A stretch of 64,000 bases of DNA from Moniliella sp. 'wahieum' (GCA_003971905.1 RSEE01000026.1:62001-126000); one strand, 5' to 3'. Shown: positions 704-59,230, counted from the first letter of the stretch. Made by a program: numbers and translations. Notes: a model not told the origin generated them from the sequence alone.

Positions 704-731
704 CTTGAAGCATGAAGCTTGAAGCTTGAAG
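704..731. repeat. Tandem heptamer array of the xy-TNA-y'x' type (CTTGAAG)
   Basis: Reads CTTGAAG-CATGAAG-CTTGAAG-CTTGAAG, about 150 bp upstream of the P450 start. Confidence 0.85.
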
Positions 732-884
732 CTTGGCAAGGCCCCTCTCATTGTTTGACGTCTCATATGTAAGCCCTCTTTCACCACACCGCCCACCCCT
801 TCTGTCTCCGCGCCCCCCTCAACCACCACCTCGCATCTATCCCAGCCCCCCGAGTGCAGTGCCAACCCCCACACCGCACCCAGC

Positions 885-2830
885 ATGGACAGCATCCCAC
901 CTCACTGGGCTGCTCTTCCGCCTTCCCTTAGCCCCCGTGCTGGCTGCAGTGGCCGTCGGAGGCATCTTGACACTCCTGCTGCTCGTCCTGGTACCTGACC
1001 GTCCCATTGGGGCCCAGCGCCAGGCCAACATTGGTGTCGTGCCCGGCGGCTACCCTATCCTGGGCCATGTCGGCATGCTCTGGGACTCGATCCGGCTCAA
1101 GACCAGCGACCGGTTCCTTGATGACATCTGCGATGCACAGCGCGCCTTTGGTCCCGGGTTGCGCCCCTATGCTTTCCATCACCTTGCCATGGCGGGACGA
1201 CCATTGTCATCAACCGCCCGAGTATGTCATGCACTGCCAAGATAACAAGTATGGCAACTTCCCAACTACATTAAAGGCGCGAGCATTCAGCGTGCCATGT
1301 CCGATTTTCTTGCGCCCGAAGGGATCTTTGTTGCAGATGGCCAACCTTGGCGAACCAACGCAAGATCGCAGCCAACATAGTATGTCGCATCTCCCTCCCC
1401 CCTGTTGCGTGTGGACGCGTGGAGCAGCGCAGTGGGGATCGTCGATCATCGATCAAGGCGCAGTGGGGAGTGTAGTATTAACAGGTTTCTGCCTGTGTGA
1501 CGCACAGTTCTCGGCTTCGAATTTCCGCACCCACTTTCAAGAAAGCATTCATGCCCACCTGAAGAAAATGGAAGCGCTTATGTCCATCTGCGCCAAGGAG
1601 CGCATCGCCATCAACTTCCAGGACCTGATGTTCCGTTTTACCATGGACACATTATGGACATTGCGTTTGGTTCTTCATTGGGTCTTTCCGTACGTCTGTG
1701 CTGTCACTCCGAGCGGCATAAAGGGTCAACAAAACTAATCTTTACAAACGAATGTGCCTCTGATTGTATGACAGAACACCCCGATGGCCTCAACCATACT
1801 AAGCCGTTTGTAGTCGCTTTCGATCATTTGCAAGAGGTGGCAAGGACGAGGGCGCAAACGCCGGCTATTTTCTAAACTTCAGCGCTATACTTCAGAAAGG
1901 ACGAAAGACTTCGGCTGCAGTCGCCACCGTCCTTTCTATGGCCAACAAGCTCGTCATGGAACGCATCGACGCGCTGGCCAAGGCGGGCGAGGATTCTGTT
2001 GGCAAGGATGCGTCAACTAAGGGAGTCAAGGACAAGCATGGCAAGGACTTGCTCCAGCTTTTCCTAGACCTTGACTTGAACCCTGCGACGTTAAGCCAAG
2101 TGCTTCTAAACTATCATTGCCGGTCGTGACTCGACGGCCCAGACCGTGGCGTGGTTGATGCTTGAATGAAAGATCGGCCTGATGTGGTCCAGCAAGTTCG
2201 TAACGAAATGGAGGCCGTGTTAGGCGGTGGTGGTCCTGAGCAGCGTCTGGTTCAGTATGACGATATCAAAAACCTACCCTACATGCGAGCTGTAGTGTAC
2301 GAGTCAATCCGGTTGCATCCCGCCGTACCCCGCCAAGGTCGGTGGGCCTAGAAGAAGACGTGATGCGTCCCACCAGCCTTCCTGACGGAGCGTATAACCA
2401 GCTTCACCCCAACGGGCAAAAGTACGGAGGGACCGGTGCCGCGCGGACGCTGAGCCGCTTCCCGACATCTATGTGCGCAAGGGCACGACGGTGATGTGGA
2501 GTGATTACGCCATGGGCCGGAGCCCGGAGATTTGGGGGCCCGATGCGGCCGAGCCGAGTACGCCCCTCACGGTTTCTCAAGAGCGATGGCACGGCCAAGT
2601 CGTATTCGGCATACGTGTTCATGCGTTCAACGCGGGGCCGCGGTTGTGTTGGGCCAGACGTTGGCCACATTTGAAGCGATTGCCCTGTTGGCCATGATTT
2701 TGAGCCGCTTTGATTTGCACTATGACGAGGTGGCGTTGAAGAAGCACCCGCCCACGTATCGCATTTCCATTACGCTACCTATCAAAAACCCTGCCTACAC
2801 TGTCACCCAAGCCCACGGTCCAACTAGTCG
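885..2830 (+). CDS. Cytochrome P450, fatty-acid/alkane hydroxylase type (CYP52/CYP86-like motifs); multi-exon, frameshifted, ends approximate
   Basis: N-terminal TM helix followed by PGGYPILGH. I-helix VLLNY..AGRDSTAQ spans a frameshift near 2100-2145. K-helix ExxR is YESIRLHPAVP, followed by WGPDAAE. Heme loop HAFNAGPRLC-LGQTLATFEA spans a frameshift near 2650. Confidence 0.9.
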
Positions 2831-5054: not shown

Positions 5055-7066
5055 GAGTAGGGCTAGGGGGGGTAATTGACGCGATGGGAGGCTCTCGCAG
5101 TTACGGTAGATGAGTGTGGAACGCTAGTGTGAGCAGAGAGAGGGTGTGGATGAGAGGCGAGATGGTGGGGTGAGGAATGCAGGGGACAGTAAATCGGCAG
5201 CGGCGCCAAAGCCAGGGATGGCGGGCTAAATTGCTATGGACTGTGCTATTATTGGGTTGGGCGCAGTCGGTGCGCAAGCGGCCAGTTGATCGTGGCTTCA
5301 AGAGCAAAGAGTCGATGAGCGGGCAACGTTTGGCGAACAATACTGATCATCTTGGCCTCAATCGTCCAACCTCGCTCTTGGAGAGTATATAGACTTCCGT
5401 CGGCTCCGACCATTCAGACCATTCACTGGCGACTAGTGAGAGCGCCTGGCTAAAACGTTGGGCGCAGCGCCTGTTCATTTATGCGCACATTGTTCGCTCT
5501 TAGCTCCGCACATCTCAGTATTGCGACTGCGCCCTCACCCCCTGGCGACCGTGTGGGCGGCACTGTGTGGGTTTCCGTGGGCCACGAGCGTTGGCGCGGC
5601 GCACCGAGTGGCCGTGCGGGGAGCAATAATAAAAGGCACCGCGCTAGTTGTCGGAACTTTGGCTGCCTTGAAGCTGAACGCTTGAAGCTTGATCCAAAAT
5701 CCCATCTACGCCACCCCTGGGCAGGGGACCCCCCCGCCCTGCTGCTACGTATTGGGGCGCGCCCCACTCGGCGCTCCTCTGCGCCCCCAGCTCCTGCGCA
5801 CCCGTCTCAAAAGGAGCTCTTGCAATACGGTCAATAGGCGCAGGTGCTTCCCCTGTGTTTTCACCCTAGTTGTAGGGCCTCATCCGCCAATCATCGCAGG
5901 ATGCGTTTGCCAACTACAGATCGTTATCTCCACCATACGCGTTTGTAGCGTCCTTCTTCCTACTATCTGGCACGTGCACCATGCTCCACTCGTCCCCTCT
6001 GCCCGCCCTAAGCGCTAAGCGAGGCCACGCATCGGGCGCTGATGACGCACGTGTGCTACGGCAGGCTCAGCCAGGCCCACCAGGGTTGTGAGTTGTTGTT
6101 GGTGGAGTTGGGCAGTGGCTGGGGTTAGAGAAGAGGTTGTATGGTTTGTCTCCCAGTCCACCTAAGGCAATCTACCTCTCCGCCCAAACCGCCGCTCCGC
6201 AACACGACACGACATGCGCAGCTGCCAGTGTTCCGAGCCGTGTCATTCGCGGGCCGAGCCGGGTGGACCAGCGCAACGTGGAGAAGAGAGGCGAGGCGAG
6301 GAAGAATGCACGAGACAAAACAAAAGCCGACTATGGCAGAACGAGTGTGGATTGAAAGACACGGGCTAGCAACCGCACACTAGACTATACACTGCACTGC
6401 ACTGTACTGTCCTAGCCGTCCCGGGTCCCGAGGCGCCTTGTCGTTTATCACGATCACATCACGTTGATCCGTTCGTCGGGAGGCGGGTGAGGCCGAGGTC
6501 AGATAGGCAGGCGCACTAGCCCCATGACGCCAGCACGGAGTGGCGGTGGGCGCGCACCGGCCTACGCTGCGGCATAGGAGCGTCGAAGGCAAAAGGGGAA
6601 AGGCCAAGTCCGTGGAGGGGGGAGGGAAGGAAAGGAAAGGAAAGGGGTAGAGGAGTGGTCCGTAGGGAGAGAAGAATTATGGTGTCCATGGGGGAGGTGG
6701 TAGTGTCCAATTCGTGGGGGTGCGGTGGGTTCCGAGCCCGAGCCCGCCAACGTGCAAAAGGAAAGTGGGGATCCCACGACCGTTGTTCGTAGGGGCAAGA
6801 GGTAAGAGGGGAGAGGGGAGAAAGTGTCTTCGTCGGTCCATGGAACAGGAGGCAAGAGAAGCTGAAAACACACAAGATATAGGAATACAGTACCGAGCCG
6901 AGCGCAGACGGGAAACGAAACCAGCAAACAGGCAAAAAAAAAGCGAAGAAAACAGTCCGTACAGCACGGTCGGCCAGAGGGCCGGCGACGTGCTGGATGA
7001 TAAAAAGGGATCAGGAGGGGGAGGGGAAGAGAGCGGGTGCGGTGCGGGCGCGGATGCGGAGCGCGG

Positions 7067-8988: not shown

Positions 8989-10299
8989 GGCCGGGGACGA
9001 GGCGTTGGCTAGCGACGGCCAGAAGGGAGTGAGGCGCTGTGCACAGAGGGGTCGAGCAAGAGGCGGGTGGACAGGCCAGAGGGGTCGGCAGCCGGCTTGG
9101 CCAGACCGGCAGAAGGCAGAGGCATGGGTTGGGGCGGGAGCGAATGGGCGTAGAGCCGTTCTGCGGCGATCGAGGTATGGCTGGCAGTGCTGGTGTGGAC
9201 GGGGGCGGCGAAGGACGGGTGGTGCTGGGCAAGGTCGCTGTCATGTCGCAAGACGACGCACCGCACGCGGGAGGGGGGAGGGGGGGGGAGAGAGTGGGGG
9301 GGGGGAGGGGGAGGGAACGGAGACGGGGGACCGTAGGCGTGGCGGGGCAAAAGAGGGGCGACGGGTGGGATGGATGGATGGGATGCTAGCAAGCGAGGCG
9401 GGGCAATGAATGAATGGCTGGACGACGGCAGAAAGGACGGGGGAGAGGGCGGGAGAAGCGGAGGAAGCGCCGTGGGTCTTGGAGCGTGGCGCCTCACTCG
9501 GGCCTCAAGCGTGAAGGATGCAGCCGAAGGGTGAAGGTGAAGCTAGCGTGCAGGAAGCGTAAATAACGCCAAACGCTAGGTTTGGCCACCTCCCGTTCAA
9601 GTCTGCCGCTGGTACTGACGGGGTATGCCGAGGGGGGAGACGGGCCTGGACGTCCAGTTCGAGTTGGACGCAAACGTGCATCCTCGGCACACTCAACCGT
9701 CGGCGAAGGCGACGGGAATTGAGCCGGCGTGCGGTTGGAGGCAGAGGCGCGCGCTGTCTAATAGCAATAGCAGCAGCGCTGGCCCTCCTGCCGACGCCCA
9801 GGACGGCTGACAAGGTGTCTTCCCTTGGCACGCAGCCAGCGGCCGCGGCCTCCGATACTATGTCTGTTCCCACCATCATCCATCCGTAACTCAGTTGCCC
9901 AGTAAGTACGACTGACTCAGTGCATCAGCCACTCGCGCCAGCCCACCCGCATCCTGTGCATCAGCCACCCGCCAGCCCGCCGTCCGCGCCGTCAAATTTC
10001 AAACCCGACAGATCCGAGCTCCCAGCGTCTCCCCTCTCCTGCCTCTCGCTACCACGTCCAAGCAGACGACTTGCCCCACGGTTTCTTTTGATCGTTCTCA
10101 GCAGACGCGGGGTGCGCGCGCGCTGCATTGTACGGCATGTCTTGGCGCCTGGAAAATAAAGAAAAAGCCGTTTTGCATCGCGTTTCCCGAGGCCATATCC
10201 TGTGTTCCAACCAGCACTGGAACGGAGGAGGAGGGTCAGGCTCTGACTCCTGACCAATGGATGGATCGGTTGATGAGAATCAGGGGTCGGTGATCGGGG

Positions 10300-12345
10300 T
10301 GATGGAGTGGGTGAGATCTGAGATGGCGGCCAGGGTGGCGTTTGTCCGGCTCCCGGTTAGAACGTAGCGCTGATAGTCGATAGCTGTACATGATGCATGA
10401 TAGCTGGGTGGCGCGTGGCCGGTAGGGTTACTGGAGGCGCTTCTTGCCTGTTGAGGATGCTCACCGGTCACCGGTCGCTATTCAATGGGGCCCCTGCCGG
10501 CCTGCACCGCCCCAGATCAGCCATTGCCGATCCGATCATCGATAGGTGCGCCACCAGCAGCCTCTAGCTCGTCACCGGCCTCACCCGTCACCCGTCACCG
10601 GTCACTCGTCACACTAGTCACCAGTCAAGCTTCAGGCTAGTCACCAATCGTTGCTAGTTAAGCGAGTTAGCTACTCGCACTCATTCGATTCATGGAACGT
10701 TGAACGTTTATGAACGTTTCTATCATCCTTCTTCCGCCACCATCCGCCACCGTCCGCCCCTTACCAAACACGGCCGACGGCCGTTTGGCTGCCCCAGGCT
10801 GCCCCTGGAGCACCACATCGGCTTGCCCCCCTCATGCATCAGGGACTCCAAGCGTCGGATCCCAGATGCTGGGGAGGACGGGGGGCTAGCGACCTAGCGC
10901 CCGGCCAGTGTGCAGGTAGGTTGTGCCGGGCGTGGATTCAATCAATCGTTGTGCAGTGGGGTCGAGATTGTGATGCATGGATGACGCTGTCGATGATCGC
11001 GCTGACTGTGCTGACTAGATGACTGTGTGCTCAGCTGAGCCTCGGCGCGCTCACACGCTCACCGACCTCACCCTGGCTCGCGCTCACCCTGACTCACACC
11101 CCCTCGGATCTTGAAGCTTGATCTCGATCAATGTTCCATGGTGTAACAGAGGTCGTTGCCAGCTGCCACTGCCACTCTGAACTCTGAACACGGGGCCCCT
11201 GAAAACGTTAAACGTTGAAAAGTACGTCAAACGTTGAACGTGTTGAACGTTGAGTGTTGAGTACGTTGAGTTGTTGAATGAGTAGTTGAACGTGGCTGCC
11301 GAATCGGCCATGCCTAGTGTTTAGCTAAGGCCCATGCGCCCTGGGCAGGCAGCGCTCTGGTAGGCGCGTACCTGCGGTAGGGGCGGTGCGGGTGGTGGCT
11401 GTGACCTCCACCTCAGCACCTTGCATCATGCATCATGCGTCATGCGTCAGACGCTTGAGCCTTGAAGCTTGAAGCTTGAACCTTCAAAGCTCCAGGCTGC
11501 CAGCTACGGCTTACGTCACGGGGGGTACCATGCTCCGCACCACTCGCCCTTTTCGCCCCATCAACTAACTATTGATCCTACGCGCTTGGTCGTCGGCGTC
11601 GGATCGACGCATGGATCACTGATCGCTGGGAGGCGGGACCTCTCAGATCTCATCGATCCCCACTCTCAGATCTCAACTCTCACTCTCAACGTTCTCACAT
11701 CTCTCAGCCTGAGGCGTGCGGATGGCCGTCCCCCGCGGTCGGCTCTTGGTCGCGCTGTTGCTGGCGTCGCGTGGACATTGGCCATCCCGCACCTTGCCCC
11801 CCCCCCCACACACACCCCGTAAGATCTGTGATGCAGCGCCGGCGTGCTGCCGCCGGTTCCGCCTTGGTGGTAGACAGTGGAGCAGCACATGCACCGCCAC
11901 GGGGGAAGCCAGGGAGAGAGTCTCGAGAGCCCGCCTCATCCTGTGTGAGATGGTTCTCAGGCTGTGATGCATGTGTGGTGATGCTCATGACCGCATGCGC
12001 ATGACCATCATCGACATCATCCGCGTGATCTTTCAAATTCAAAAGCAGTACGAGGATGCGGTAAGTGAATCGCCGGCTACTCTTCTCCTCACGAGGTGGA
12101 ACCGTGTGTGGTCCCTCCGGTTACCTGTTATTACCAGCCTGCGCGTAGGGGGAAGACGAAGCCCATGTTGTGATGCGCGAACGAACACTTGGTCGTTTTT
12201 TTAGGAAACCTCTAACTATATTCGTGTTTGAGTACTGAGTACTGAGAGTGTGGTAGGGGAGAGTACACAGTGTGAGTACACTGAGTCTCAGTACTGACGG
12301 CTGCATTTCCACATCTGTGTACAGAGTAACTGAGCACTAAGCACC
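10300..12345. repeat. Intergenic cluster of xy-TNA-y'x' heptamer stutters
   Basis: GGTCACC (10466), GTTGAAC units (10699, 11232-11251), CATCATG x2 (11424-11437), CTTGAAG x2 (11461-11474), TCTCAGA (11641, 11664), ACTGAGT (12234). Confidence 0.75.
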
Positions 12346-12349
12346 GACC

Positions 12350-15300
12350 AAGATGCATCTAGTGCGGGACACTCGCTCGCGAACATCGGTCCACGCCATA
12401 TATGCACCACGACAAACTGCCAAAAACACACAATCAACCGAGAGAAACCCCCGCAGCCTCTCGTTCTCCCCTCCTGCGTCTCCCCTCTCACCATCAAACT
12501 GTGTTTTCGCACCCCAAAAGCATATCTATTTTGACAGTATTAGGATAGTCGCACCATCGCCACTGTATCTCACTCCATTGGCCGTGCATGCACTCTCCCA
12601 TATTAACAAGTACCACTATACTCGCGGTCAACTCCTTTCTTGGCCGAGAGGATGGGGTCGAAAAGTAGCACCCAAGAAAACTAATCCATAAGCATCAAGG
12701 AGCCCACTACTATACACCCATATCCTGTTGGTTGTTTATCTGGAGAGAGAGATGGGGCGAGACTCCAGTGCAGATTCTGTAGCCCAGACACGTGGGTCGA
12801 CTCAGTCTCATTTGAATTACTTTAGTTCTGCGAGAACGTCTCGCACTTGGCAAGCCTGTGCTGCGATGGTACATTTTGGCAACAATTTAGAGAGAAAAGA
12901 CACGGGGCTGCGGGTTAGGAAATCAATGCAGTCGCCATACAGCAAGTCGGGACCCCCTGGAGCCTGTCCGAACTCGCATCCAAGCCGAGTGTAACGCACA
13001 GCGTGGCACACGAATGTGATGAGCGGGTGAATCACTTCCAACGAGAGACTATTATTCTTTTTCCACAGCGTACCCAAACACCTTGTTGGCCGTCTTAATG
13101 GCATAGTAGTATCTGCGCGCCGTCTCATGATCAAGGAAGAATATAGCTCTGTTGAATACGTCCCTAGTCCTTGGCGTCTCTTGTCGCATTCCGCTTCCTC
13201 CCGCAGTCGAAGCTCCTCCTTCTCCGGGCGTTACACAGGCGTTGCAGTTCTTCTTGTACCACCTTCACCTTTGGGCACATAACCATCACGCCCTTGTCGT
13301 GCACGAATCGGGCAAGGTGTGGTCCATCCTCATTCCTGATCCAGCGAATGCTCCTGGCCCATACGTCACTCGCTAGTCCGTATGCCTCGCCTTCCGCCGA
13401 CGCCGCGTCCCGCCCTCTTACTCCACAATCGTCTCATCGGGGTGAATGTGGACGTCTGGGATAGAACGCATGAGCTTGGGCATGGGCGCTCGCCCACAGT
13501 CTTATGCCATACGCCAAACTTGGACTGGATGCGGGACCAAGCCAGAATGTACTCAATTGATGGCATCTGACCACACTTTGATTGCACTGGCTGCACGCGG
13601 AACGAAACCGGACACAGAGCTGCAGGTCCTTCTGAAAACCCCTGCTTGTCGGTGAGCTCGATCGACCCCAAGGCACTTGGTTGCTGTCATTGAAGACAGC
13701 CAAATGGAGTTGAACGCCTGGCATTGCTTGCTCAATCGCATTGCGATCATCGGCCCTCGTTCCTCTCCGTTGAGGTGTTGGAGTAGCTCCGGGCGACTGT
13801 AACTACATTGTGCGGTGTGTGAAAGGCATTATACCACCGCTTTTATACCACCGCTTTTGCTAGGTACCGCAGCCCAAGAGGTACAGCCCACAACGTAACC
13901 AGCCCACCTCCCACACCTTATTCCGCGCGGTTATGGAATGGTAGATTATAATAGGGGACGGTGGACCCTCAGTGGTTACCCGGCCGAAACAAGGGCCAGG
14001 TCATCTAGCGTTGAATAACCAAAAAAGAAACAACTGTAAGGCTGGCAGTGCGTAACATATACCCAACAAGGGGAATTCACTAACATGAATCTTATATGTT
14101 TAAGATTGAGAACCTTTCTTCCACATTCGTTTTTCGGACGCCTGTCGGCCATATGCATAGCGAGAGGGAGGCAGGGAAGGTATTGGCAGGTTTGTCTATG
14201 GCTAGACCTCAGGCCTCGACGGTCGTGTAATGAGATATACGCAACAGACACATGTGGAGCCAACATGATTTGGGTTTCTCTCCTTTTGTCGTTTACATGT
14301 AGGTATATACGTTTTTCCCGCATATATATAGGGATAAACCCTCGTCCACCGACAACAAAGTGAAGAGTGTTTTCTCTTCTTGGATCCACCTCTAAGGGCA
14401 CATCTCCCTATCGCAACCTTTTGGAGCTGTGACTAATGTTTTCGCGAATTTCCAATAGGTAATTCTATGCTGCCACCAAAAGTGCCTAAAGAGGTTACAG
14501 AAAAGCCGGTAGCATCTTTGTCCACAGTTTTACGAGGACACGGAGTGCAGGCGAGTCCGGCCAGGCCACGTTCTTCCTTACCTAGGTTATGCGTCTACCT
14601 CAAGACGGACTGGCTCTCATGAATATCGAACAAACCCATATACTCCATCGCATCTATATAACCGAGCATGCTCCTTTCGATCTATATGCGACTTGGATCG
14701 AGCCCGTTCCGTACGGCCAAGGCGATCCGTGCCTTATTGGCGTTTGGGGGTCTCTCGTGGGTTTATCCTACCTCCGAATTATTCGGACTTGTTCATGAAC
14801 CCAAGTGAGCTCGTCTGAGATGAGCGTCTGGACGAGGGCGTTATTTTCCTGGTCCGAGCGTCTCGTGTTTATTGTGAGGCTCTCTTCCCTCCTCTGCTTT
14901 TCTTTTTCCTTTTGGATGAAAACGGAGGACCAGCTATTTACTCTCGGCCTCTCTGGGTTTGACTGTTCTCGTTCCTGGTCGAGGGTATTGGGAACTTTTG
15001 GTCTGTGCTCAGTTCTTCTGAGGGTCATTGGCCTTGATTCCTTACCACTTTGGTCCTTGCGTTTTGTCTATTCATTATAGATCCTGTCTGCACGACCCTT
15101 GATCCATATATGTTCTTTCCGCTTTTATATATTAGCGAGGGCCATTTCATTTCGTCCTGCTATAGAATCGTCTTCGCCTTTTGCGGCATCAACGTCCTTT
15201 TGCCAATGCATCCTGTCTGGGGATCAAGACATCAAGTTGGCTAGATCCTGGTTTATTCTAGGCCTGTTTCCCCTTTGTCTCTATGTTCCTCACTTTCTTT

Positions 15301-15906: not shown

Positions 15907-16065
15907 TGTTGACATCCGTCCTAGGACCGCCGGACCCTGAGTCACGTGAGTCAGCTTTCATTCCTTCCGAGCTCGCACCAGTCTTCTGGACGAGTCAGTC
16001 GCAGAAGCTTCTTAGTCCAATACGACGTTCAGTGCTCACATTCTGTGGTAGTAGCGAGGCCGACA
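15907..16065 (+). repeat. 5' LTR (159 bp)
   Basis: TGTTGACATCC...GGCCGACA; matches the 3' LTR except for two small indels. Confidence 0.97.
15938..15953. promoter_or_regulatory. Two Gcn4/AP-1-type sites (TGAGTCA) overlapping a CACGTG box within the LTR
   Basis: TGAGTCA-CG-TGAGTCA, also present in the 3' LTR. Motif match only. Confidence 0.45.
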
Positions 16066-16119
16066 GAGTTACATCCTTATCTGCTCATCCCTGAGCTGGC
16101 CAAAACTACACCCACAACC

Positions 16120-44339: not shown

Positions 44340-45038
44340 GGCGAACAGAGAAGGGGGGGTGGAGGCAAGGAAGAGAGCGGCAGCGCAGCGCCAAAGCGGA
44401 GGGGGCGCCAGCGGGCGTGGGCGGTGGGGCTCAGCGTGCGCAGGCTGGAAGGCGCAGGAGGGGCGCATAGCTGCCACGGGTAGACACGCTGGGGCTCCGC
44501 CTGAGCAAGCATTCGCGTACTCGTGCTCGGCGCAGCGCGCAACTCGGGCTGAGTACTCAGACTGAGTCCTGGGTCTCAGGCCTGGGCCTCCGACTCAGAT
44601 GCGACACACACACGCGCCCCGCGCACTCGCGTAAGTCCAACATTCAACACTCGCACCGCGCCAGCACACCGCACCGCCCACGTCACGTGCCGCCGGCGCA
44701 TCCCACGCAGATCAGACGATCAGGAACTGCGGGCCAGCAGAACGGTCCCGTCCATGGAGCTCCGCCACGCATCCGAGTGCCAGCCACGGAGCCGCCATCA
44801 CCGCATCCATCCATCACATGTCACACAGCCACGTCGGCCACCCTCAATTTAACATCAAATTTCAAATGCACGTACGGGACACGCTGTGATGCCTGTGATT
44901 TCGTGTACGTGATCGAATCGCTCCCTGCCAAAAACGCCTCAAGACCATCCTGCCACGATGAGAAAAGTATGGATCGCTGCCACAGCCCTCTCAGACCTTA
45001 GATCTCTTAGATCTTATCAGCCTCCTGCCCCCTCCGAT

Positions 45039-47796
45039 TTAGTTCACCCGCGCAATCTGCTGGAGCGCGTGCTGGTAGGTCTCCAGCCGGGCACGCGCCT
45101 CGACGCGCGCCACTACTGCCGCTTCATCTCCTCCAGCAAGCGGCCCAACGAGGCCGGATGGAGGAGTGGCACCTCTCGCTCTGGCGAAGCGCAGTACAGC
45201 GCCTGCACCAACCGGGTCTCCATCGCCTCTGTGGCCGCGTGGACAAGAAGGTGCATATGGCCTTGGGCACCGTGTCCTCCACCACCTCCCGTGCCAGGGC
45301 TAGGTAAGCCAAGACTAACGCGCGCACCAACTCTTCCTTCGACCTAGGCTGCACCTTCTCCGCTTGGGCTGGCACGCTTTCGACTCGATTGAACCTTGGG
45401 GTGGAGCAGGGCCAGGGGAGGACGAGCGTGCTTCGTCCTGCACCGAGGACGGCCGATGCCGGTCCTCGCTGCCCCCAAGAAGCGAGAGAAAAATCCTTCG
45501 GACGGGGGGGCGGGAGCAGCTGCGGAGCGGACCCAGCTGGAGGCGGAAGAATCACCGTCGGCACGGCGCCCACTGTCGCCCCGCGGTGATGACCGGACAC
45601 AGGAGGGGTGGGAGGAGAGGAGAGACTCTGGGTGCTGGACCGTGTTCGTGCCTTGGTAGGCGTCGGCGGCTTGGCAGGCGGAGTGGGCGTGGGCGTTCGC
45701 CTCCATCGGAAGGCACCGATCAGAGGGGACATGGGATCGTAGGCACGGTTTGGGCACGGGAAAGGGGAGGGTGACCTTCTTCCTCCTGTACAGAAGGGCG
45801 GGGGCGTCATGGTCGGGCTGCGGTTTGTGGTGTGGGTAAGGTTGGGTTTGGACGCGGGCTTAACAGGCGGGGGCGAAGGAGGATGAAAAATCGCTTCTCT
45901 CGCGCGAACGAAAGCAGGATGGTCAACCTTGATGTATGCGGAATGGAGGTCGACGAGGTTCCTAATGTACTCGGCTGTAGGCCCTCGCCGTTCTGTCAGC
46001 ATTAGGTCAACGCGATCCGTTAGCGCGGTGCGTAGATGAGGGAAGCGAGCAAGCTCCTGGGACACGGGGGTTAGTACGTTTTTTTTTGCTCATGTGCGGG
46101 GGGTATTTAGCGGAATGACGTACGGGTCGAGCCGAGACGTGAGCAATGCGGACCAATTCCTCAAACACACTTTCCACACATTGTTGAGCCGGGAAGTGGA
46201 GGCGATGCAGTTGTGGCTTGACGAGCAATTGAATGCTTGGTCAGGGACAAAAGCCCCGGTCTTGGACCGGCAGCGTTACGCAAGGCGGTACGAATGGTCT
46301 GGGTGGATAGCCCCGACGCTTCGTCCCACTCAGGATCGGGGTTGCCAGGAGGCAGCAGCTCGTCGCACTGCTGAAGATGTGGGGAAGGAATGGTATCAAG
46401 AAGAGCTTGGTGGAAAGAGTCGACAAAAGTACGATAGATCCTGGCCCCGCCTTCCCCCTCAATGCAGGCCACCACATCCGAAGCAAACTGGGTTGTGAGA
46501 GAGAGCACCAGCTGCGCTGCCTCTGATCCGATTGGGGATGAGGCACTCACCCTTGTGGGGCCTATAACAGAGGCAGTTGCCCCGGAAGGAGTAAGAGAAG
46601 GGGCAATGGATAAAGAAGGTGAATGGGGTGGGGACGCTTTCCCCACCTTAGCATTGTCCCAGTCTGATCCAACCAGTGTCCTCTCTTCTTCATCCTGCGT
46701 GCGCGGCCGTCGAAACGTGTCAACAGGCAGACACGGGGGAGGGGGCATCCGCCCAAGTTGGTGCTGCGTCTGAGCTATCAACGCGCTCAATCGCGCTGTC
46801 AATGCTGGGACCCGACATTGAAAGCGGTTCAGCAAAGTCCGAGCCACTGCATCCACCAACGCAGCTCCGCCGCACCTCTGCCCAGCCAAGAATGGAGAAA
46901 AGGAGACAGAATGCTGTTGCCACGTAGCCAGTCGGGGAAGCGCCCTAGATTCGAACCCACCCGCTTGCGCGATGGGGAGGTAGGTGATACCGTTCTTAAA
47001 GGGGGAACTGGGGCGCCCCAGGAACGGAAGGTTGTATCTCCCTGCAGACGACATGCAAAGGGGATCACTCCAATCGTTCTGTCCCCCTTTGGGTCCACTT
47101 CGAGGGCCAACTGGACGGCGGGACTAGTCTCTGCCCGCTCCCACGGGATAAAACAACGCAGAGAACTGCATCCGGCTCCGAAGCGTACGACAAGGCCAAA
47201 GAACGACGAGCTTGCGCCAACCAGATCTTCAGGAGACACCTTGCTTTCAACGTTGCCGGACGCGACAGTCGTAGCTGGAGAGAAGAGGGCCTGCTCGTCC
47301 GGAACCATTAGGGCAGGGAGCTCGACCAGCTGCAGATGGGCAAGTCGGGGGCGCATAAGGTGAGGCAGCTAGACGGGTCACCTTCCTGTGGAGGATGCGA
47401 GCGCTCCGCCTTGATGCGCGCCCACACTTGGTCTGGCTCCATCGAGTCGAAGCCAGATAAGGACAGACGCGGAGCCATGGACGTATCTTCAGATGGTGCA
47501 AGCGAACCAGCAGAGGACGAGCAGTTGCATCTTCCGACCAAAATGGTGTTGCGGCAAGCGATGAAAACCATACATGGTGGGCATTTGAGGAGATACCAGG
47601 GGTAAGTGGGCTGCCCCCGAGAGCATGTAGCACGTGCGCCGTGCTTGTTGCTGCCCCTGGGCCGGCAAGGAGCACACATTGAGGCAGACCGGGGAGCGGT
47701 AGATTGCAGCGGCGCAGGCGGTGTGGATGCGCTCACATGCCGAAGGGAGCTTTCTCGCTGGCGGTCGCGACCAGGCACTAAGGAGAGTTGTTCCAT
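45039..47796 (-). CDS. Dynamin-related (Dnm1/Vps1-like) protein with degenerate GTPase motifs
   Basis: MEQL..LPQCVLL, TARPLLVRL, LQLVELPAL, AVQLALEVDPKGDRTIGVI. Middle domain IEGEGGARIYRTF, IRTALRNAAGPRPGL, PAQQCVESVFEELVRI, ELARFPHLR, AYIKVDHPAF. GED LVLAYLALAREVVEDTVPKAI...YQHALQQIARVN*. Confidence 0.88.
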
Positions 47797-48858
47797 GGAG
47801 TGTCAGGTGAAGGAGCAACAGTGGTGGTGGCAGCGCAAAGGAAAACAGGAGAGGGGCGGAAGCGCGGCGGTGTGTTCAAGAGACCCCACTCCAGGCAACA
47901 AGGAAGCAGGCGGTGTGGGGTCTGTATATGAGGGACCCAGAGTGGTCCAACTGAAGCACGCTGGCCCAGTGTGGAGAGCCTGCGTCTCAGAGGCCCTCGG
48001 GAGCGCCGGGTGACGAGGCTGGGCAGATGAATATGGAAGAGGACGCGGAGTCCAGACGGCTCAAACTGCGCTCGCGCTCAGCGGGAACTGCGCTCAGCCC
48101 ACGCTCAATGCGCGCGCTCAAGCGCTCAATACCAATCCCCTCTCCTGGGCTCTGGGCGCTTGGGGCCCTAGGCCGCAATAACGGTCGAGATGATCATCAG
48201 CGCCGGAGTCAACGGTTCGCGCGCGCTCACAATCAAGCAACGTTTCCTACGTTTCCTGTCGTTGCTGACGTATAGCTTGATGCCTCGCTCTCAGTATGTG
48301 TATACTTTGGTGCAAGCGCACTGTGCCTGCCCCCTCTCTCTCCCGCCCAAGCTATCCCCTTCTGTTGCTCTTGCTCCTGCTGCGTCCCGGGATTGGCCGA
48401 GTGGAGCAAAACGGCGCGCCGTGTCTCATCCTGCTGGCCCCCAACCCAGAGTGGAGTGACTTTGTTCAGGGTAAAGTGCATCTTCGGTGCATACTGCGTA
48501 GGACTGCGGAGCACGTCTCGTCGCGTCACGTGACGTCCCACCCCTCCCTGCCTTCCTCTCATCGTACTCAACGTTAACTCAACGCCCATCACTGGGCGGC
48601 CTGGCCACGCTAAGCGATCGATCTCACGCATGGCCTGGAGAGCCAATGGGAGGCTGGCAGGAAACGAGCCTGTGGGACCACGCTTAAAACTTACTGGGCG
48701 GGGCGAATACGCAGTCCGAGGCCAACTGCACAGCCATGGAAAATGATCGATGACCGGTGGGAACAGGCACCGATTAGAAAGGAGGGGGGGTGAGGCCAGA
48801 GGGACAATACCAGGTCCCAAACAAGCCCAAAATCTCATTGATAGAGGAACGAATGCAG

Positions 48859-50407: not shown

Positions 50408-50830
50408 GATGCGGAACAAGTGGAGCACCAAGCGGGCGGGCGAGGTGGTTGTGGGGTAAGGTGGTAGGGATGGCCAAAACTGGTAACGTGCCGCGCGAAT
50501 CAAACTGCGCCAAGGCAGGGAGCTGGGATGTCCTATTTTTCCGCACTAGATTGGTCAACCTGAGCGGAAGCACCAACCAATTGTAATTTTAGGCTACGTG
50601 GAACCTACAGTGCTCTCGGATTCAGCACTACACCATCTCAAACCAGTTCGTGCAGTTGGATGCTGGGCGCAACTTGCTGTTCTTACCCCTGCGACCCCGG
50701 CCCTTGGATGCTAGCTTGATGGACACGCGGAAGAGCAGCCAATCCAACAAGCCCGCCGTGGCAGAGAGGGAGAGCCACCCAAATGCTTTTGCAGGATGCT
50801 AGTCGCTCGGATCCGTGTTGCGGGAGAACG

Positions 50831-50858
50831 GGTGACATGTGACATGTGACATGTGACA
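50831..50858. repeat. Heptamer array GGTGACA-(TGTGACA)x3
   Basis: Read directly; upstream of the RUD3-like gene. Confidence 0.85.
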
Positions 50859-52009
50859 GGTACATTCGATTCAATTGTTGAATGCTCGCGCCTAGTATCC
50901 TGGCTCACGTGCCACGGCAGTGTTGAACGTTGCATTTATCAATGTCCTGGTACTTCGGAGGCAAAACAGAATCACAAGAAACCGCAACCGCGCCCCATAG
51001 AAAAAGAGACCTTCAGTATACTTTCGTATCAGCAACGGCGCCGTATGGTAAGCAGTCGAAACTCCCACCCAATTTTTTCAGGAAAAGTCTCAGGAGGACC
51101 TTAATCTTGTGTTGGGATAGATCCTGCCTTACTCCTATACGGTGGGTGGTTGACAAAAATCCACACAGAAGATGAATCCGAAAACAGACTCACACATTCA
51201 GAAGAGGCAATGAAAAGGGAGAGAAGTCAACTATACCGCACCTATTGACAAAGATGGAGCATGAGTCTCATCGAATGACCAAACTCGCTCCAATTTCCAA
51301 TTCTGCATCCGTGTACCTCTTGTTCATTCCTTTCCCTTTTTTGTTTCTGTTCCCTGCTCGACGCCTTTTCTGTTTCCTCCCGCTGTCTTGCCATCCACCC
51401 CGTCTCTGATAGCGCCTTGGTCTCCCTCGTCTAGGCCCGGCTGTTACAACGGGAAGCCCAATTGCTGGGAGTACAGGCTAGTTCTAAGAAGCAAAAAGCT
51501 ATTGCGGCCCACCATATTCTTCCGAAGAGACAGTTTCATCTGACGGAACGGAGGATGCCAAAACCGTATATATACCGAGAACCACCAACACATCCTTTCT
51601 TCGGTACATGCGGCCGAGTTCTGGGGACCTGTATATCTACTGCGTAAACAAGCGTTGGTACCACTCATGAAGCGCTATATTAGGATAGGAACCGGTGCCC
51701 TTCCCAGAATAGAGTCTCTGCTTACAACCTGACATGATAATATACATCGTTTATGCAGTGCAACGGACCATTGCAGAGGGATTATATGTCATACAGTATC
51801 CGCGAAAAGGACGCGCAAGTCTTGATTTGCCAATTTCGCCCTAAACTACAGGAGAATTTGACCAAAGTGGCCTCTTTTTATGGCTCAAAAACTAACGGTA
51901 AGGTGTTCAGGCATGGAACTTGGGAGGGGGGGGGGGCGAACGCTTCCTCTGTAGACTTCAGCCTAACGGCTTTGGTGATCGATGTGTTGATTCACCCACA
52001 GGTCGTCTC

Positions 52010-52385
52010 ACAATTGTTTTGGGTATCGGTGGACACGGTGTGGTAAAAAAAGAAAGCGTCGCAACGCCTGTGGATTACAGGGAAAAGGAGGTTCTTCGAA
52101 CGTTGCATCAGCAAGCGTAATCACAAAGGGAACACCGTCAAGTATCTGTGTGAGGGCCATACTCAAGATCTATTGTTTTCCCCTTTATTGATCAGGATGA
52201 CGCGGACCACGCAAGTCTGTAGTATGCCTCCAAGACGGCGAGAACAAAATCCTTGAGATCACTGGAAACCCCTAACTGATGTGAGTCTTTTGATGTGGTT
52301 CATCGACATCACCCTCTCACAGAATATAGCAGTTGGAGCAGTCGGAATACCATACCATCTTCCAGGCACGGAAGCATGGAGCTCT
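52010..52385 (+). pseudogene. Possible decayed protein-kinase fragment
   Basis: IVLGIGGHGVV (Gly loop) and REKEVLRTLH (helix C-like). VVHR/DIT..NI needs an indel. PYHLPGTEAWSS follows. Stops are present and no DFG is seen. Confidence 0.3.
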
Positions 52386-52804
52386 TAACTCTATGGCTTG
52401 AAAACACCGCCGGCCTCATCATCTTCGTTCCGTAACAAAGGAAGGGATGATAATCAGTCAGTTGCTCTTGCTCTTCGGCCATAATGCGAGGTGAGAGGCG
52501 CGCGCCCATAGTAATATGTTGTTAAGCGGTTAATGTTGTTTTAAATGGGAGAGGGTGAGATCTGCTAAGGGGCGCTTCGGCCGCACGCGCCCTTTTTTCC
52601 TTTCCGTGTACAAAAAGGTTTTAGTCCTCCATGTATCACTAGCACTCCCCTCAAATGTGTAATGGGGGGACGGATGAGGTTGTGTGGTAATTGAGTGTGA
52701 AGTTCTGGATAAGCATATTGGTTCATGGGTTCTACTAGTGGGGCCGCTTTGTCGTAAAAAAGCCACCCCTTTCTACAATGTCTTCCGTCGTCCGAGATAA
52801 TAAA

Positions 52805-53435
52805 AGCGCTAAGCGCTAAGCCGACATTGATCATCGAGATCATAGAGGACCTGCTTATAACGGTGGATTAAGCAAAGACACACAGCCCGCTTCTCAGATC
52901 TCAGTCTTGTTCCCCCTGTTTCATCCACATTAGGGCGTATCCGTAGCTTCGATGTCGATGAGCGCGCTGAGCATTTTTGAGGCACTGCAGTGACGGAAGG
53001 GTGACTATTGAAGAGTGAAGAGTATACACTGTGTGAGTATATATATACTCCACACCCTCACACGTCCCAAACCCTCTCAACAGGAAGCTCTCATCTCTCA
53101 GATCTCACTACTGAGAGCCGCAGGCGCTTAATAAAAAGTACAGATACTCATATTCACTTCGGAGGCGGTGACCTCTGTGACGGTAGCCAGTCACAGAGAC
53201 ATACTATATATACTCACCGATGATCATCGTCCTTAGGCCTTATTAGGCCTTATATAGTCCCCTTATAGGCCTTAGACCCCTTAGGCCTTAGGCATTATGC
53301 ATTATATCCCTTAGTGCCCAAAGAGCATATCGAAGCGTCGTGCGCTCTGTCGAACAGGGGGGTGTATTGTACTGACGAAACGCCGACAGCATGGCCGTCA
53401 GCGCATGATCGTCAACGTTGAAGTTCAACGTCGTC
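52805..53435. repeat. Intergenic cluster of xy-TNA-y'x' stutters
   Basis: GCTAAGC x2 (52808-52821), TCTCAGA (52892, 53096), CCTTAGG (53231; x2 at 53279-53292), CATTATG (53293), GTTCAAC (53423). Confidence 0.75.
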
Positions 53436-55304
53436 AACGCACACCGTCGTCACCCGACTCTCTTCTCTGTGAGGTGTCATTTTCCCCCATCATCTCCCCA
53501 TCGATCCGTCGCGTACATATATACCCCCTTTCCCGAGTAATTCAATATAATCAGTCCATTGAAAACTACACGGCTATTTATATCGAGAGAAACAACTTGT
53601 TGGTATACAGAAGCTTCAAAACGGGTCTAATACCACTCCCTCTCTGCGTTGATTTCAACGCTTAATAGGACGATCAACGCCTAATGGGATATCGTTTTCG
53701 CCCGGTCGGATAAGCCAACAATTTATACGGTACACACGCATCTACTAGGCTGAGAAAATACACCTTGTCGACGTTCCATTTGCAGCCGGGGGTGGGATCG
53801 AAAGTGCAGCCCTGCTTGGACAACGTTATACGGCATCTTGGTACGAAAGAGGGGTATAATAGTAATTGGTGTCATAGTTTGACTGTGATATGATATCGCT
53901 CCATTTCCAAAAAGTCTCTGTCTCACATGTGCGTTGCCTCTCTTTCCCTGATCTTCTGCGGTGCTCCATTATGCAGTGCTCTGCTATTGCACTCATAGTT
54001 TTCCCACAAAGGATTGCTACTACATCTCCCGACAGACCTCGTCTTGATTATGGTCTTCCTCGTCTTATTAGCCCCTGACTGTGACATGTACAAAGGAGTA
54101 CTCGCAACTGACACCAGGCACTCTGATATGTAAGGAAGATATATATAGAACTGCCTGCGCGTGAGACGGGGGAAGACTGGTTCCGCTACAGTTGTAGGAT
54201 GTGACATGTGGCAAGCCAAAAGCGAAAAGAGAGACTGCATGTGACGAGGGGGCGTTTCAATTTGTCCACCCACGCACTGCTGCTGTGAAGCGGAATAATA
54301 AGATACGATTGCATTTTACCGCATCTCACCAATCCTACCGCAGTAGTCTCACACCTCAGAATTAGGGTAGTGGGCCTTTCCAACTTGCAGATTGTGGAAG
54401 ATACTATGAGAGAAAAGGGGCCTGCGTAGCATTCCGAGCATGCTGCGAGATATGTAATTGCCACCTGGGCCACGGTCGCCCAACCACGATAGTCCAACCA
54501 ATGCCTTTATGACAGGGAGGACGATACAAAGTAGAAAAGAAAGGTCCATCGCGATCCGCTACTTCCACATGTAGCCCGATCATCGTGAGAAAGTAATGAT
54601 TGTTATCCTCAGCAAAAAAGTGCAGAGGAAAGAAAGATCAACTGAAAACAGTGATCAAGACAAAGAAAGTAAAGGCAAGCAACGTGAAGCAATGTGAAGC
54701 TCGAAGGAATGTGAAGAGCTGTTACTTACTTTCTTGTATTCTGATCGAGGGGGAGGGGAAAACAGGAAGGATGGGAATCTTGAAGTAGCGATGAAGGAAA
54801 CGTTAAAAGACAAAGAAAACGGTTGTTGATGTCGTTGAACGTTGAACATGGAACCGGAAAAAAGGTGACAGGATGTTACCGGAGGACGGGGGAAGGAGCA
54901 ACAGGCACAGATACCAAGCATCGTGAAGAGAGCATATGGCGCTCGTATATGTCCAACCGGGGACATAGACGAAGGTGTGGTGCCAGCCTGTGTGGGTTGA
55001 GTAGTCGCCCCCGCGCAGGAGTCAAGTGCCAATGCAATAGGGCGACGTGGAAGGGGAGAGGGGTACGGGAGATGCAAGGATGACGAAATGCGGAAATCGA
55101 CCAATATAGAAAGACAGACCCAATAGAAAGAAGGGGGCTTTTGACGGCCTCCATTGCAGGGGGAATATGTTATACGCACAGTGTTTGCCAGGAGCGCTGC
55201 CCCAAAAAGGCAGATGCAGGCAGAGGGGCAGTGACTCCCTGCTCCAGTGCACCATTGGTACGATGAGAGAGGCCAAGGCAATCTCGACCTGTTCCAGTGA
55301 AGGA

Positions 55305-57237: not shown

Positions 57238-57699
57238 GGAAAATGGAAGCGCCCAGCGAGAACGATGAGGCAGGTGGAAGAATTAAAGAGCTGAAAGTTG
57301 AGAGCTGAGAGCGAGGCGCGGTGCACCGTAAGAATGAAGACAGCACGAGAGGTCGAGAGTTGAATGGGCACGTCTTCGTCTTGAGAGGGATGGAGGAGGA
57401 AAGGAGGCGAGCAGGAACGGACCAGCCGTGGGTGAGCCAGTAAAACGAGGAGCTGGAGAGCGAGACAATGAGGGAATTGGGAGACTGTATCAGAGGAAGG
57501 CAGAGTATGCCGACGGGACGGAAAGGAGGCGGGACAAGGGGCGGGGTACAGCACGCCGGTGACTGCCCGGGGGTATATGAGCAGAGTGAGGTGGCGGCGG
57601 GTTGTACTGGGCCTGAACCCAAGCAAACTGACACGCAACTATGTCGTTGTGGCAAACACCGGGCGTATATGTCCGGGGGGAACTCCAGTTGAGCCTTGG

Positions 57700-59230
57700 G
57701 CTAGTAACCAGTGACTAGTGAGGCCGAAGGCGTGAAGCTTGAAGCGTGAAGCTTGAAGCCTGAAGCTTTAAGCTTGTTAAAGGGTGTTCGGCGTTCAACG
57801 TTCAACGCTCAGGCCGGGACGTTCACAGGCCCCCAGAGGTCTCAGGCTGAGCACTACAGAACCTCAGCTCTGAGGCTCAGCGCCGAGTCCCGCTTCAGAG
57901 TGGGTGGCGAATGGCGGGGGGTGGGTTCGGGGAGTGATGAGCTAGTGATGATCGATGAGTACTCAGAACTCAGAGACTGAGTGACTAGTGACTAGTGACT
58001 GGAGTGACTTCACTACTAAGAACTGAGATTTGAGAGGAAAAGGCGAGAATAGCAATGGACAGACATAGAGACTCGAGGAGACTTCTGCGATGCCAGTGGG
58101 CACCTCGCGCACATTAATACACGCTCTGTCAGTGGGCAACGTTCCGGTATAGCAATAGTAAGCTAAGCGCTAACCGTCGACAAGACACGTTTCAACAAGC
58201 TTCCACAGCTTTTCCAACCCAAAGCAAAACGGCAGGAAGTGCATTATCGTTGTGCATGTGGCTGGTCCAGAACAGACCAACCCCCCAGAAGCAGCGCGTC
58301 ATGTGTAGTGCACAAGGCCTACAGTAAAAAGAGCAGCCAACAACTCTTAACGCAATTAACATTCAACCACACTCCCAGCGGGCCCAACGCGAGACTGTCC
58401 CCTCGGATAACGTTCAGCGGCTCAGCGCTGAACCGTTGAACTTCAGCGTTCAACAACGTTCAACGTTCAGCCATTCAACCTGAGGGTTCAGACGTTGAAC
58501 CTCAGGCGGATGGGCAGCACCAGGCAGCACCCCATCAGTCAGAGCAGGGAGTGCGAGGCGTTTGTGTCTACAAAGGTTTTACAAAAATGCCCGGATATAA
58601 CATGGTCGCACCGTGTAGCTTCGTCTTGGGGCCACACCCCTCCACTGCCCCTGTGCTGCGGCCTGCATTGGCCGTGCCAGGGCCCAGTGTGGAGCAGTGT
58701 CTAACAATTCACATCACATCACTGATATGTCACGCGTGCCACATGTCACATGTCACAGGCCTCGAGCCTCAGTACCTCAGTGCTAGTGAGGCCTGAGGTC
58801 AGGCCTGAGGCTCAGGCCCTCAGGGCGCTCAGGGGCCTCACTAGCTCACTAGCTCACTAGCCCACTAGCCACTCTTTAGCCTCACTGGTCAGACCGGTCA
58901 CCGGTCACTTGAAGCTTGAAGCTTGACCGCCTTTTCAGCTTCCCGTCTGGCCGAAGCAACCGCAGGTTCACCCACACCGCATCACATGTGACTAGTGACT
59001 CTACTGATGCCACGGCTACCATAATGTCACCTGTTCGCTCCCTCTTTAAATCCGTCATGCATCATGCGTCCAAGCTTTCCACTGCATTGGAGCTTTTCTT
59101 GAAGCCTGAGGCCTCAGCCTGAGGCCTGAGGCCTGAGGCCTGACGTCGGCCTGACGAGCTAAAAGCGTCAAGCTTCAAGCTGGAAGCTGGAAGCTGCATG
59201 AAAGCCTACGCGTTACGCGCTTACGGCTAT
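57700..59230. repeat. Densest cluster of xy-TNA-y'x' stutters, between divergent genes
   Basis: C[GTC]TGAAG run (57731-57765), GTTCAAC x2 (~57794-57806), AGTGACT x3 (57980-58000), GCTAAGC (58161), TGTCACA x2 (58744-58757), CCTGAGG x3 (59118-59138), CGTTACG (59211). Confidence 0.85.

Follow-up and report, generated by a model that had tools for sequence, protein, structure and literature searches.

Palindromic heptamer arrays in a 64-kb window of a Moniliella genome are probably excision footprints of a cut-and-paste DNA transposon

In a stretch of 64,000 nt from Moniliella sp. 'wahieum' (GCA_003971905.1, RSEE01000026.1:62001-126000), which is fungal nuclear DNA and is hereafter called the window, we found many short tandem arrays whose unit is a 7-bp interrupted palindrome, xyTNAy'x', where N is any base and a prime marks the complementary base. 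We consider these arrays to be excision footprints of a cut-and-paste DNA transposon, or of a close functional equivalent, with a probability of roughly 0.6. The heptamer arrays are the multi-hit end of a larger class of scars whose elementary member is a polar 12-mer, and their symmetric arms would be P-nucleotides of exactly 2 nt, which refines an initial annotation that had already read the arrays as insertion/excision scars of a TNA-targeting DNA transposon. The analysis covered this one window of one genome, given as one strand with coordinates counted from the window's first letter, together with a set of metagenome contigs, and the arrays are known from the assembled sequence alone.

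Perfect period-7 arrays of at least two copies numbered 55 in the window, against a mean of 3.6 and a maximum of 9 in 100 dinucleotide-preserving shuffles, and 32 of the 55 could be rotated into the interrupted palindrome abcNc'b'a' (mean 0.44 and maximum 3 in the shuffles), so that the observation of tandem palindromic heptamers was confirmed; all 14 arrays that the initial annotation had cited as examples were present where it had placed them or within a few bases. The centre base was flanked by T and A in 31 of the 32 palindromic arrays, the sole exception being CCGACGG at 10770. Periods 8 and 9 gave 12 arrays each, with none palindromic at period 8 and one at period 9. Single-copy 7-mer interrupted palindromes were not enriched at all (1023, against about 1063 expected from the base composition), and in the comparison with other centres that the initial annotation had proposed, the single copies were about equally common (TNA 293, GNC 302, CNG 249, ANT 179), while tandem recurrence at a distance of 7 bp was restricted to the TNA class. 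When the 173 period-7 runs of at least 12 bp were searched for heptamers with 2-bp complementary arms, the centre was TGA in 31 cases, TCA in 25, TTA in 8 and TAA in 6 (70 in total), and the other 32 centre triplets together made up 51, none of them more than 4; this tally shows that the TNA requirement is real and not an effect of the search.

The arms, on the other hand, are nearly free. Across 57 scar loci 14 of the 16 possible arm dinucleotides were present, only AA and TA being absent. A separate tally of the arm bases gave C13 T10 G6 A4 at x and T13 C10 G6 A4 at y. The initial annotation had counted 12 of 16 and had taken the arms made of A and T only to be missing, but TT occurs at 9992 and 44855, and AT at 21477. 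All four centre bases do occur, as it had stated, but they are not evenly free: G or C was found in 50 of 60 locus-units and A or T in 10. Selected cis-regulatory words, that is, symmetric sites for dimeric factors or structured RNA or DNA elements multiplied in promoters, would fit the clustering of the scars in 5' intergenic zones and the recurrence of TNA-palindrome words at spacings other than 7, and some units coincide with known-looking sites, such as the ACGCGT pair at 32849-32862, which we take to resemble MluI cell-cycle-box (MCB)-type sites. However, so broad a use of arm dinucleotides, with positions ±2 near uniform, is not what such words would show; we know of no protein family whose recognition rule is an arbitrary dinucleotide together with its complement, the strictly flank-dependent polar 12-mer described below has no functional rationale, and many loci are decaying. 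We therefore regard selection for regulatory words as very improbable.

The elementary unit was a polar 12-mer, xyTNA + y'x' + xyTNA, in which a 5-nt sequence is repeated directly after a 2-nt spacer, and the spacer is the reverse complement of the dinucleotide that begins the repeat. Perfect copies filled 98 12-nt frames on both strands, against 0.2 in 10 shuffles, and fell into 57 loci; copies with one violation added 43 more loci (137 frames, against 11.3 in the shuffles), which form a tail of decaying copies. We measured run length L as that of the maximal period-7 run holding a TNA-centred palindromic heptamer. The counts for L from 9 to 14 were 35, 9, 11, 24, 15 and 9, those for L from 15 to 23 were 3, 4, 1, 3, 3, 2, 2, 1 and 1, and two runs had L = 27, whereas ANT, CNG and GNC centres gave 0, 1 and 3 runs at L = 12 and about zero beyond. 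Most runs of L = 12 (21 of 24) were in only two of the six phases, xyTNAy'x'xyTNA (13) and its mirror image TNAy'x'xyTNAy'x' (8), and 12 of the 15 runs of L = 13 were one of these two forms with one chance match added. All three runs of L = 19 were in the same phase, and both runs of L = 27 were 26+1. Taken with the peak at 12 and the phase restriction, these long runs show that the lengths are quantised as 5+7n.

These lengths bear on microsatellite slippage, which might favour hairpin-folding units if a looped-out unit evades mismatch repair or the cleavage of flaps, a scheme put forward for CNG repeats. The units are indeed self-complementary, heptamer arrays are also borne by two bacterial contigs (L030 and L064, see below), and non-palindromic arrays such as (TGCTCAG)6.7 at 21697-21743 show that 7-mer slippage happens in the window. 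But slippage needs an existing repeat, and it predicts neither a 12-bp peak nor two fixed phases nor lengths of 5+7n; the more stable GNC and CNG palindromes are as common singly as TNA palindromes yet are never duplicated, a palindromic unit with 4-bp arms was found in only 1 of the 12 period-9 arrays, and the +9 class described below, with 7 direct and 2 inverted bases, is not a slippage product. Slippage as the origin of the arrays is thus improbable, as the initial annotation had also judged. The (TGCTCAG)6.7 array is one mismatch off a palindromic form, and directly after it (to 21776) stand two copies of a 13-bp unit with 6-bp arms, GCTCAG-T-CTGAGC.

The polarity of the 12-mer was examined by an exclusive classification of identical triplets 4 nt apart, sorted by the type of their filler. 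At TNA centres the left-flank-templated filler b'a'ab was found 20 times, with 7 further ambiguous cases, and the right-flank-templated filler cdd'c' 19 times, with 6 ambiguous cases, whereas the same two classes gave 0/0/0 and 0/0/3 at ANT/CNG/GNC centres. With the ambiguous cases included, right- and left-overhang types numbered 27 and 25. Plain 7-bp duplications without inverted bases showed no enrichment at TNA (9, against 12, 11 and 14 for ANT, CNG and GNC). Cores composed of TNA, a 4-bp palindrome and TNA numbered 86, of which 4 were bare and 23 lay inside arrays, and exactly 2 extra matching bases were found on the left only in 20 cores and on the right only in 19. Thirteen of the 21 cores whose two centres differ were perfect 10-bp palindromes of the form TNA + 4-bp palindrome + TN'A (for example at 58422, 58799, 59107, 33170, 21752 and 44550); they may be scars with one centre copied off the other strand, or point-mutated scars.

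Other derivations were tried and dropped. General fold-back synthesis was rejected because the enrichment of long palindromes is mild and the arrays themselves account for the excess at spacer 1, and deamination of CNG to TNA because it would require an identical conversion of all copies. A 3-bp TNA duplication with a 4-bp palindromic filler was set aside given the rarity of the bare core, and joining via TNA/TN'A microhomology given about 4 cases of the complementary-N variant with a 2-nt extension, against 52. The idea that the units act as stop codons in all frames of both strands is true of one strand only.

The size of the duplication is seen in a rarer, +9 form, in which two identical 7-mers enclose 2 nt whose sequence is the reverse complement of the adjoining 7-mer end. 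This form was found at 13 loci, with about 0.1-0.2 frames expected in shuffles, and in 9 of the 13 the third base of the 7-mer is T and the fifth is A; the remaining four are one coding 9-mer array and three unrelated cases. The arms are non-complementary in 6 of the 9 TNA-centred loci, such as CATCATC ga CATCATC and ACTGATC gt ACTGATC. The +9 class therefore shows that the event duplicates 7 bp with TNA in the centre and adds 2 templated inverted nt at the junction. Six loci of period 8 (+8) fit as an intermediate form, compatible with partial trimming, so that the spectrum of perfect scars comprises about 57 loci of +7, 6 of +8 and 9 of +9. The +9 loci with a central TNA and the +8 loci are as follows.

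647-662: +9 scar ATTTAAG ct ATTTAAG, TTA central
11233-11248: +9 scar GTTGAAC gt GTTGAAC
11256-11271: +9 scar GTTGAGT ac GTTGAGT
12006-12021: +9 scar CATCATC ga CATCATC, a non-palindromic 7-mer with TCA central
21267-21282: +9 scar GTTCAAC gt GTTCAAC
21341-21356: +9 scar ACTGATC gt ACTGATC
26823-26838: +9 scar ACTCACA gt ACTCACA
28141-28156: +9 scar CATGATG tg CATGATG
33354-33369: +9 scar AATGACA tt AATGACA
21287-21300: +8 scar CTCAGG cc CTCAGG
21895-21908: +8 scar
48116-48129: +8 scar
58768-58781: +8 scar
58811-58824: +8 scar
58837-58873: +8-class CTCACTAG array

In 52 pre-insertion sites, each reconstructed from a scar of a single event, the only conserved positions were T(-1), S(0), where S is G or C (92 of 104, symmetrised), and A(+1), and positions ±2 were near uniform. 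Thus the reading of the initial annotation, transposon scars with hairpins on the flanks, is the one best supported by the anatomy (the polar 12-mer, the 5+7n lengths and the +9 class), but the duplication is the 7-bp nnTNAnn and not a 3-bp TWA. An element with a 5-bp duplication, Transib- or hAT5-like, could leave xyTNA and 2 P-nucleotides from one flank only, which would suit the commonest product, a 5-nt direct repeat with a 2-nt inverted filler; Transib gives 5-bp duplications and perfect flank hairpins (PMC5499845, in the text available), and the duplication of hAT5 is also 5 bp (PMC12730594, likewise). For such an element, however, TNA would be off-centre at one end of the target and the P-nucleotides would always come from the other end, whereas the full 7 bp, TNA being exactly in the middle, are duplicated at the nine +9 loci and 6 bp in the +8 class, and the right and left overhang types are equally common, as a symmetric 7-bp target predicts. 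A 5-bp duplication accordingly has little probability in our judgement.

From the observed anatomy, counts, quantised lengths, polarity, 7-bp duplication and location of the scars we infer a transposon, flank hairpins, their opening 2 nt off the tip and a choice between overhangs, which would act together in the following way. The element would insert with a staggered cut at T-S/N-A sites, duplicating the 7 bp abTNAcd. On excision both flanks would become perfect hairpins with their tips exactly at the boundaries of the duplication, and a host nuclease would open each hairpin 2 nt off the tip, the flank duplexes each losing 2 bp. The opened flanks would then end in ...abTNA and start with TNAcd..., carrying the 4-nt self-complementary overhangs cdd'c' and b'a'ab. 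End joining that keeps one overhang and removes the other would produce abTNA-b'a'ab-TNAcd or its mirror image, a net gain of 7 bp, and a second copy that keeps one or both of its end bases would produce +8 or +9. At a second hit on a symmetric scar the identical palindromic overhangs would anneal, and the array would grow by a whole unit to 19, 26 and more bp; slippage may add further copies once an array exists. In this model the length of the duplication sets the period of 7, TNA is invariant because of the target preference, and the arms are free yet complementary because P-nucleotides take their sequence from the other strand of their own flank. Since each hop would leave a scar without raising the copy number, few elements could leave many scars. 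Artemis/SNM1-type nucleases prefer to open hairpins 2 nt from the tip, the distance also known for hairpins of the RAG/Transib type.

The classical hAT duplication has the 8-bp consensus nTnnnnAn, whereas that of the window is 7 bp long and has its T at position 3 and its A at position 5. The 9-bp target of Tn10/IS10 has a symmetric GCTNAGC core and is likewise a symmetric site, chosen by a dimeric transposase, with T-N-A at the dyad; however, Tn10/IS10 is bacterial, duplicates 9 bp and has fixed arms, while the arms in the window are free and would be made by repair. PIF/Harbinger elements share a target trinucleotide of the T-N-A type but duplicate 3-bp TWA, in contrast to 7 bp with a mostly G or C centre here; Harbinger relatives are described with 0-, 2- or 3-bp duplications (PMC12730594, in the text available).

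Excision of Ac/Ds, known from plants, Saccharomyces and Candida albicans, resembles the proposed scheme in that the duplication is kept at the empty site together with short deletions or P-nucleotides from flank hairpins, and in that repair is by end joining with a hairpin-opening nuclease, which would apply to the window scars as well; hairpin-cleaving Pso2 has been implicated in this repair in yeast (PMC5873905, in the text available). Unlike the scars, Ac/Ds duplicates 8 bp, and its palindromes are centred on the complement of the element-adjacent base, with a one-base offset (same source), whereas those of the window are even and centred on the boundary; the window scars are also fixed in the genome at about 1 per kb and pile into arrays. 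Because the palindromes are even, the chemistry looks closer to a boundary nick, RAG/Transib-like, than to that of a classical hAT. Flank hairpins are formed by hAT (Hermes), Transib, RAG1 and the MULE Muta1, and host enzymes such as Artemis may open them before end joining; in RAG and Transib, perfect flank hairpins opened off the tip lead to even palindromic additions of a few nt, as in the scars (PMC5499845, in the text available). But V(D)J joints have no target duplication and RAG/Transib junctions are diverse, and Transib duplicates 5 bp; in the window the main product has a 5-nt repeat, but in the +8 and +9 classes 6 and 7 nt are duplicated around a central TNA.

Duplications of 7 bp in Basidiomycota are described for hAT7 (Pucciniales) and Kyakuja (Laccaria and other Agaricomycotina), which thus share with the scars both the length and a basidiomycete host, and hAT relatives use flank hairpins; these families are described in rusts and mushrooms, however, and not in Ustilaginomycotina (PMC12730594, in the text available). 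Kyakuja has CA..TG ends without inverted repeats (same source). The available text of that source gives neither a target consensus nor footprints for hAT7 or Kyakuja, and the available literature on families with 7-bp duplications (Galileo/P, hAT7, Kyakuja, Dada and some MULEs) mentions no TNA target. CNG microsatellites and bacterial heptamer arrays are, like the scars, short self-pairing intergenic units, with period 7 in bacteria, but they consist of a single motif and arise by slippage, whereas the window has many motifs, one construction rule, a 12-bp form and a phase rule (PMC4692102 and PMC4679880, in the text available). In the literature searched we found no description of palindromic heptanucleotide repeats in fungi or basidiomycetes.

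Several observations weigh against excision of a transposon. As the initial annotation had noted, no transposase is visible in the window: a match to a DNA-transposase family was found in none of its 144 open reading frames (ORFs) of at least 130 codons and in none of 109 ORFs of 60-129 codons from gene-poor stretches (0 of 253 together). It had also proposed to look through the genome for terminal-inverted-repeat elements with TNA duplications; within the window no candidate was bounded by a TNA-centred 7-bp repeat with 10/12 inverted ends, and 8/10 inverted ends were seen in 1 of 1709 pairs of identical nnTNAnn 7-mers (10759-15046), about 0.7 being expected by chance; nor was an occupied site, with an element between TNA-centred duplicates, found within the window. 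The footprint spectrum is very narrow, without an excess of duplications that lack inverted bases; among 128 excisions of Ac/Ds in C. albicans there were 28 types of footprint, all with short deletions or with palindromic insertions of P-nucleotides, for which flank hairpins were invoked (PMC5873905, in the text available), whereas the window scars are dominated by one product. That joining should keep exactly one of the two overhangs is an ad hoc rule, and the excess of TNA scars in 409 kb of array-selected metagenome loci, described below, is weak, only about threefold. The absence of the element from the window would be compatible with conservative transposition, in which each hop adds a scar and no copy, although this is an argument rather than evidence.

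Because the product is more uniform than that of experimental hAT excision, there is room for a transposon-independent or domesticated enzyme. An endogenous or domesticated nuclease or transposase might make symmetric breaks or hairpins at TSA in open chromatin, with repair adding 7 bp each time. Such an origin would suit a window with no element or transposase in it, and scars clustered in few intergenic zones, and products as extremely uniform as these are easier to reconcile with a reaction defined by an enzyme than with error-prone joining. A direct duplication of 7 bp, however, is characteristic of strand transfer to staggered positions in a target whose gaps are then filled, and a staggered cut that was merely filled in would yield plain 7-bp duplications, which are unenriched as shown above; moreover, no endogenous process is known to us in which, with no element inserted, a target duplication of fixed length comes together with palindromes derived from hairpins. 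We consider transposon-independent break repair, which the initial annotation had allowed for as an undescribed hairpin-repair process, to be rather unlikely.

The sole mobile element in the window is a young Copia-type long terminal repeat (LTR) retrotransposon at 15907-20958. Its LTRs (15907-16065 and 20797-20958) share a 124-nt stretch of 100% identity and its ends are TG..CA; the domains Pol_BBD, SH3_retrovirus and RVT_2 each have a frame of their own. Because the element duplicates 5 bp of target, TGGTC rather than TNA, and does not excise, its integrase was rejected as the maker of the scars.

The scars are concentrated in DNA outside long reading frames. Stretches in which no frame stays open for 130 codons or more make up 32.5% of the window, and 47 of the 57 loci fall within them (binomial p = 1e-14). 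Dense zones are 57701-60123 (16 loci), 20833-22689 (7), 10357-11575 (6) and 50546-53925 (6), while the non-coding stretches 12121-15080 and 24726-26931 and the gap 35922-36421 have zero or one locus each. As read from the ORF map rather than from gene models, the forkhead gene, the LIM gene and a minus-strand ORF ending at 10356 each have a dense zone upstream. That the scars were created in sequencing, amplification or assembly is hardly credible, since they avoid long open frames, show mutational decay and have counterparts in independent metagenome contigs with fungal-type genes (L057, L021, L043 and L012), and since we know of no base-calling or assembly error that inserts 2 inverted and 5 direct bases specifically at TNA. 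The +7 loci are catalogued below; the ACGCGT pair is entered with its zone.

703-735: CTTGAAG array, a multi-hit scar of 3.3 perfect copies (4.7 with one variant copy), upstream of a cytochrome P450-like gene
1444-1455: single +7 scar, unit GATCATC
5681-5692: single +7 scar CTTGA ag CTTGA
6009-6020: single +7 scar of the GCTAAGC family
9992-12246: zone of 11 loci, starting at 9992, 10312, 10389, 10461, 11110, 11242, 11424, 11461, 11641, 11664 and 12229, with arms TT, TC, CA, GG, CT, GT and AC
10461-10476: GGTCACC array
21262-22238: zone of 7 loci upstream of the forkhead gene, starting at 21262, 21461, 21617, 21653, 22046, 22155 and 22227
21617-21637: AGTTACT, 3.0 copies
21653-21674: GGTTACC, 3.1 copies
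26781-28543: 4 loci, starting at 26781, 28134, 28404 and 28532
from 26781: CTTCAAG run of 19 bp (5+7x2)
32536-33388: 3 loci, starting at 32536, 33207 and 33377
32849-32862: ACGCGT-A-ACGCGT-A, which fits the scar grammar with unit CGTAACG
41689-41795: 2 single scars, CCTTA gg CCTTA and CTTCA ag CTTCA, in minus-strand reading
44814-45016: 3 single scars with arms TG, TT and TC, between the GH79-like and dynamin-like genes
50833-54847: 7 loci, starting at 50833, 52808, 52892, 53096, 53231, 53279 and 54834
50832-50858: TGTGACA, 3.9 copies, 27 bp (26+1)
from 53279: CCTTAGG with CATTATG directly after it
57710-59568: the densest zone, with 16 loci over about 1.9 kb, flanked by a minus-strand ORF block that ends at about 57700 and by the LIM-domain gene
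57980-58000: AGTGACT, 3.0 copies
58896-58926: GGTCACC followed by CTTGAAG
59117-59143: CCTGAGG, 3.9 copies

Protein domains in the window were assigned by Pfam.

2166-2694, plus strand: P450 fragments
17336-20802, plus strand: Copia-type polyprotein
23594-24604, plus strand: forkhead domain
42354-43175, minus strand: GH79 C-terminal domain
45124-47123, minus strand: pieces of a dynamin middle domain
60483-62228, plus strand: LIM domains

Among named organisms, the best relatives of an intron-free DUF2235 ORF at 34199-35587 are in Tilletiaria anomala (50% identity) and Tilletia horrida (42-44%), and an assembly protein is the best match overall (71%); the fungus is therefore related to the smuts (Ustilaginomycotina). 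The G+C content varies between 48 and 66% along the window; two gene-poor stretches of lower G+C (0.47-0.53) without a Pfam match are 12121-15900, which is almost scar-free, and 50546-53925, with its six scars. Long ordinary microsatellites are also present, (CCCTTT)15.7 at 24804-24895 and (TGCTG)11.6 at 32383-32440. A perfect 30-bp repeat of 2.3 copies (37614-37682) and a 24-bp repeat of 5 copies (39029-39148) both lie within Pfam-negative long minus-strand ORFs and are likely to be coding repeats of low-complexity proteins.

We also scanned metagenome contigs for (CTTGAAG)3, which gave 121 loci of mixed origin with 409,061 bases. With the query family left out, perfect 12-mers numbered 16 at TNA centres against 6 at ANT, 6 at CNG and 5 at GNC; as the loci are of mixed origin, this shows only a weak excess of TNA scars outside this genome. 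Additional TNA palindromic arrays stood next to the query array in L043, L057, L021 and L012, and L057 and L021 carry fungal-type genes (NACHT/ankyrin). L030 and L064 are bacterial by their genes (DUF5686/CarboxypepD_reg and PNPase/ThiC); their intergenic heptamer arrays (246-566 and 3249-3511 in L030, 3983-4050 in L064) are of several kinds, including CTTCAAG, CCTTAGG and ATTGAAT. The scar signature is thus probably not unique to this genome, and no metagenome locus comes near its density.

As excision footprints, the scars would be unusual in their density and uniformity, in their 7-bp TSA-centred target and in building a family of palindromic heptamer arrays. Tentatively, and at somewhat less than even odds, they may point to an undescribed, recently very active hairpin-forming cut-and-paste element with such a target, or to its domesticated descendant, in this smut-relative lineage; each hop would have left one +7 scar, the element would rank among the main origins of small insertions, palindromes and heptamer microsatellites in promoters, and the scars would be the fossil record of thousands of hops. 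If the excision reading is right, this class of heptamer 'microsatellites' would be the trail of transposon excisions and not the product of slippage, with about 57 perfect scars in 64 kb, or about 2 per kb of non-ORF DNA. Excision scars would then strongly shape promoters, each adding 7 bp and the arrays creating perfect 6-bp palindromes, and both the target of the transposase (nnTSAnn) and the rule by which the host opens hairpins, 2 nt from the tip, would be readable from sequence only. The reading predicts a low-copy, highly mobile element elsewhere in the genome, and it would illustrate that palindromic tandem repeats can be repair products rather than binding sites or structural elements.

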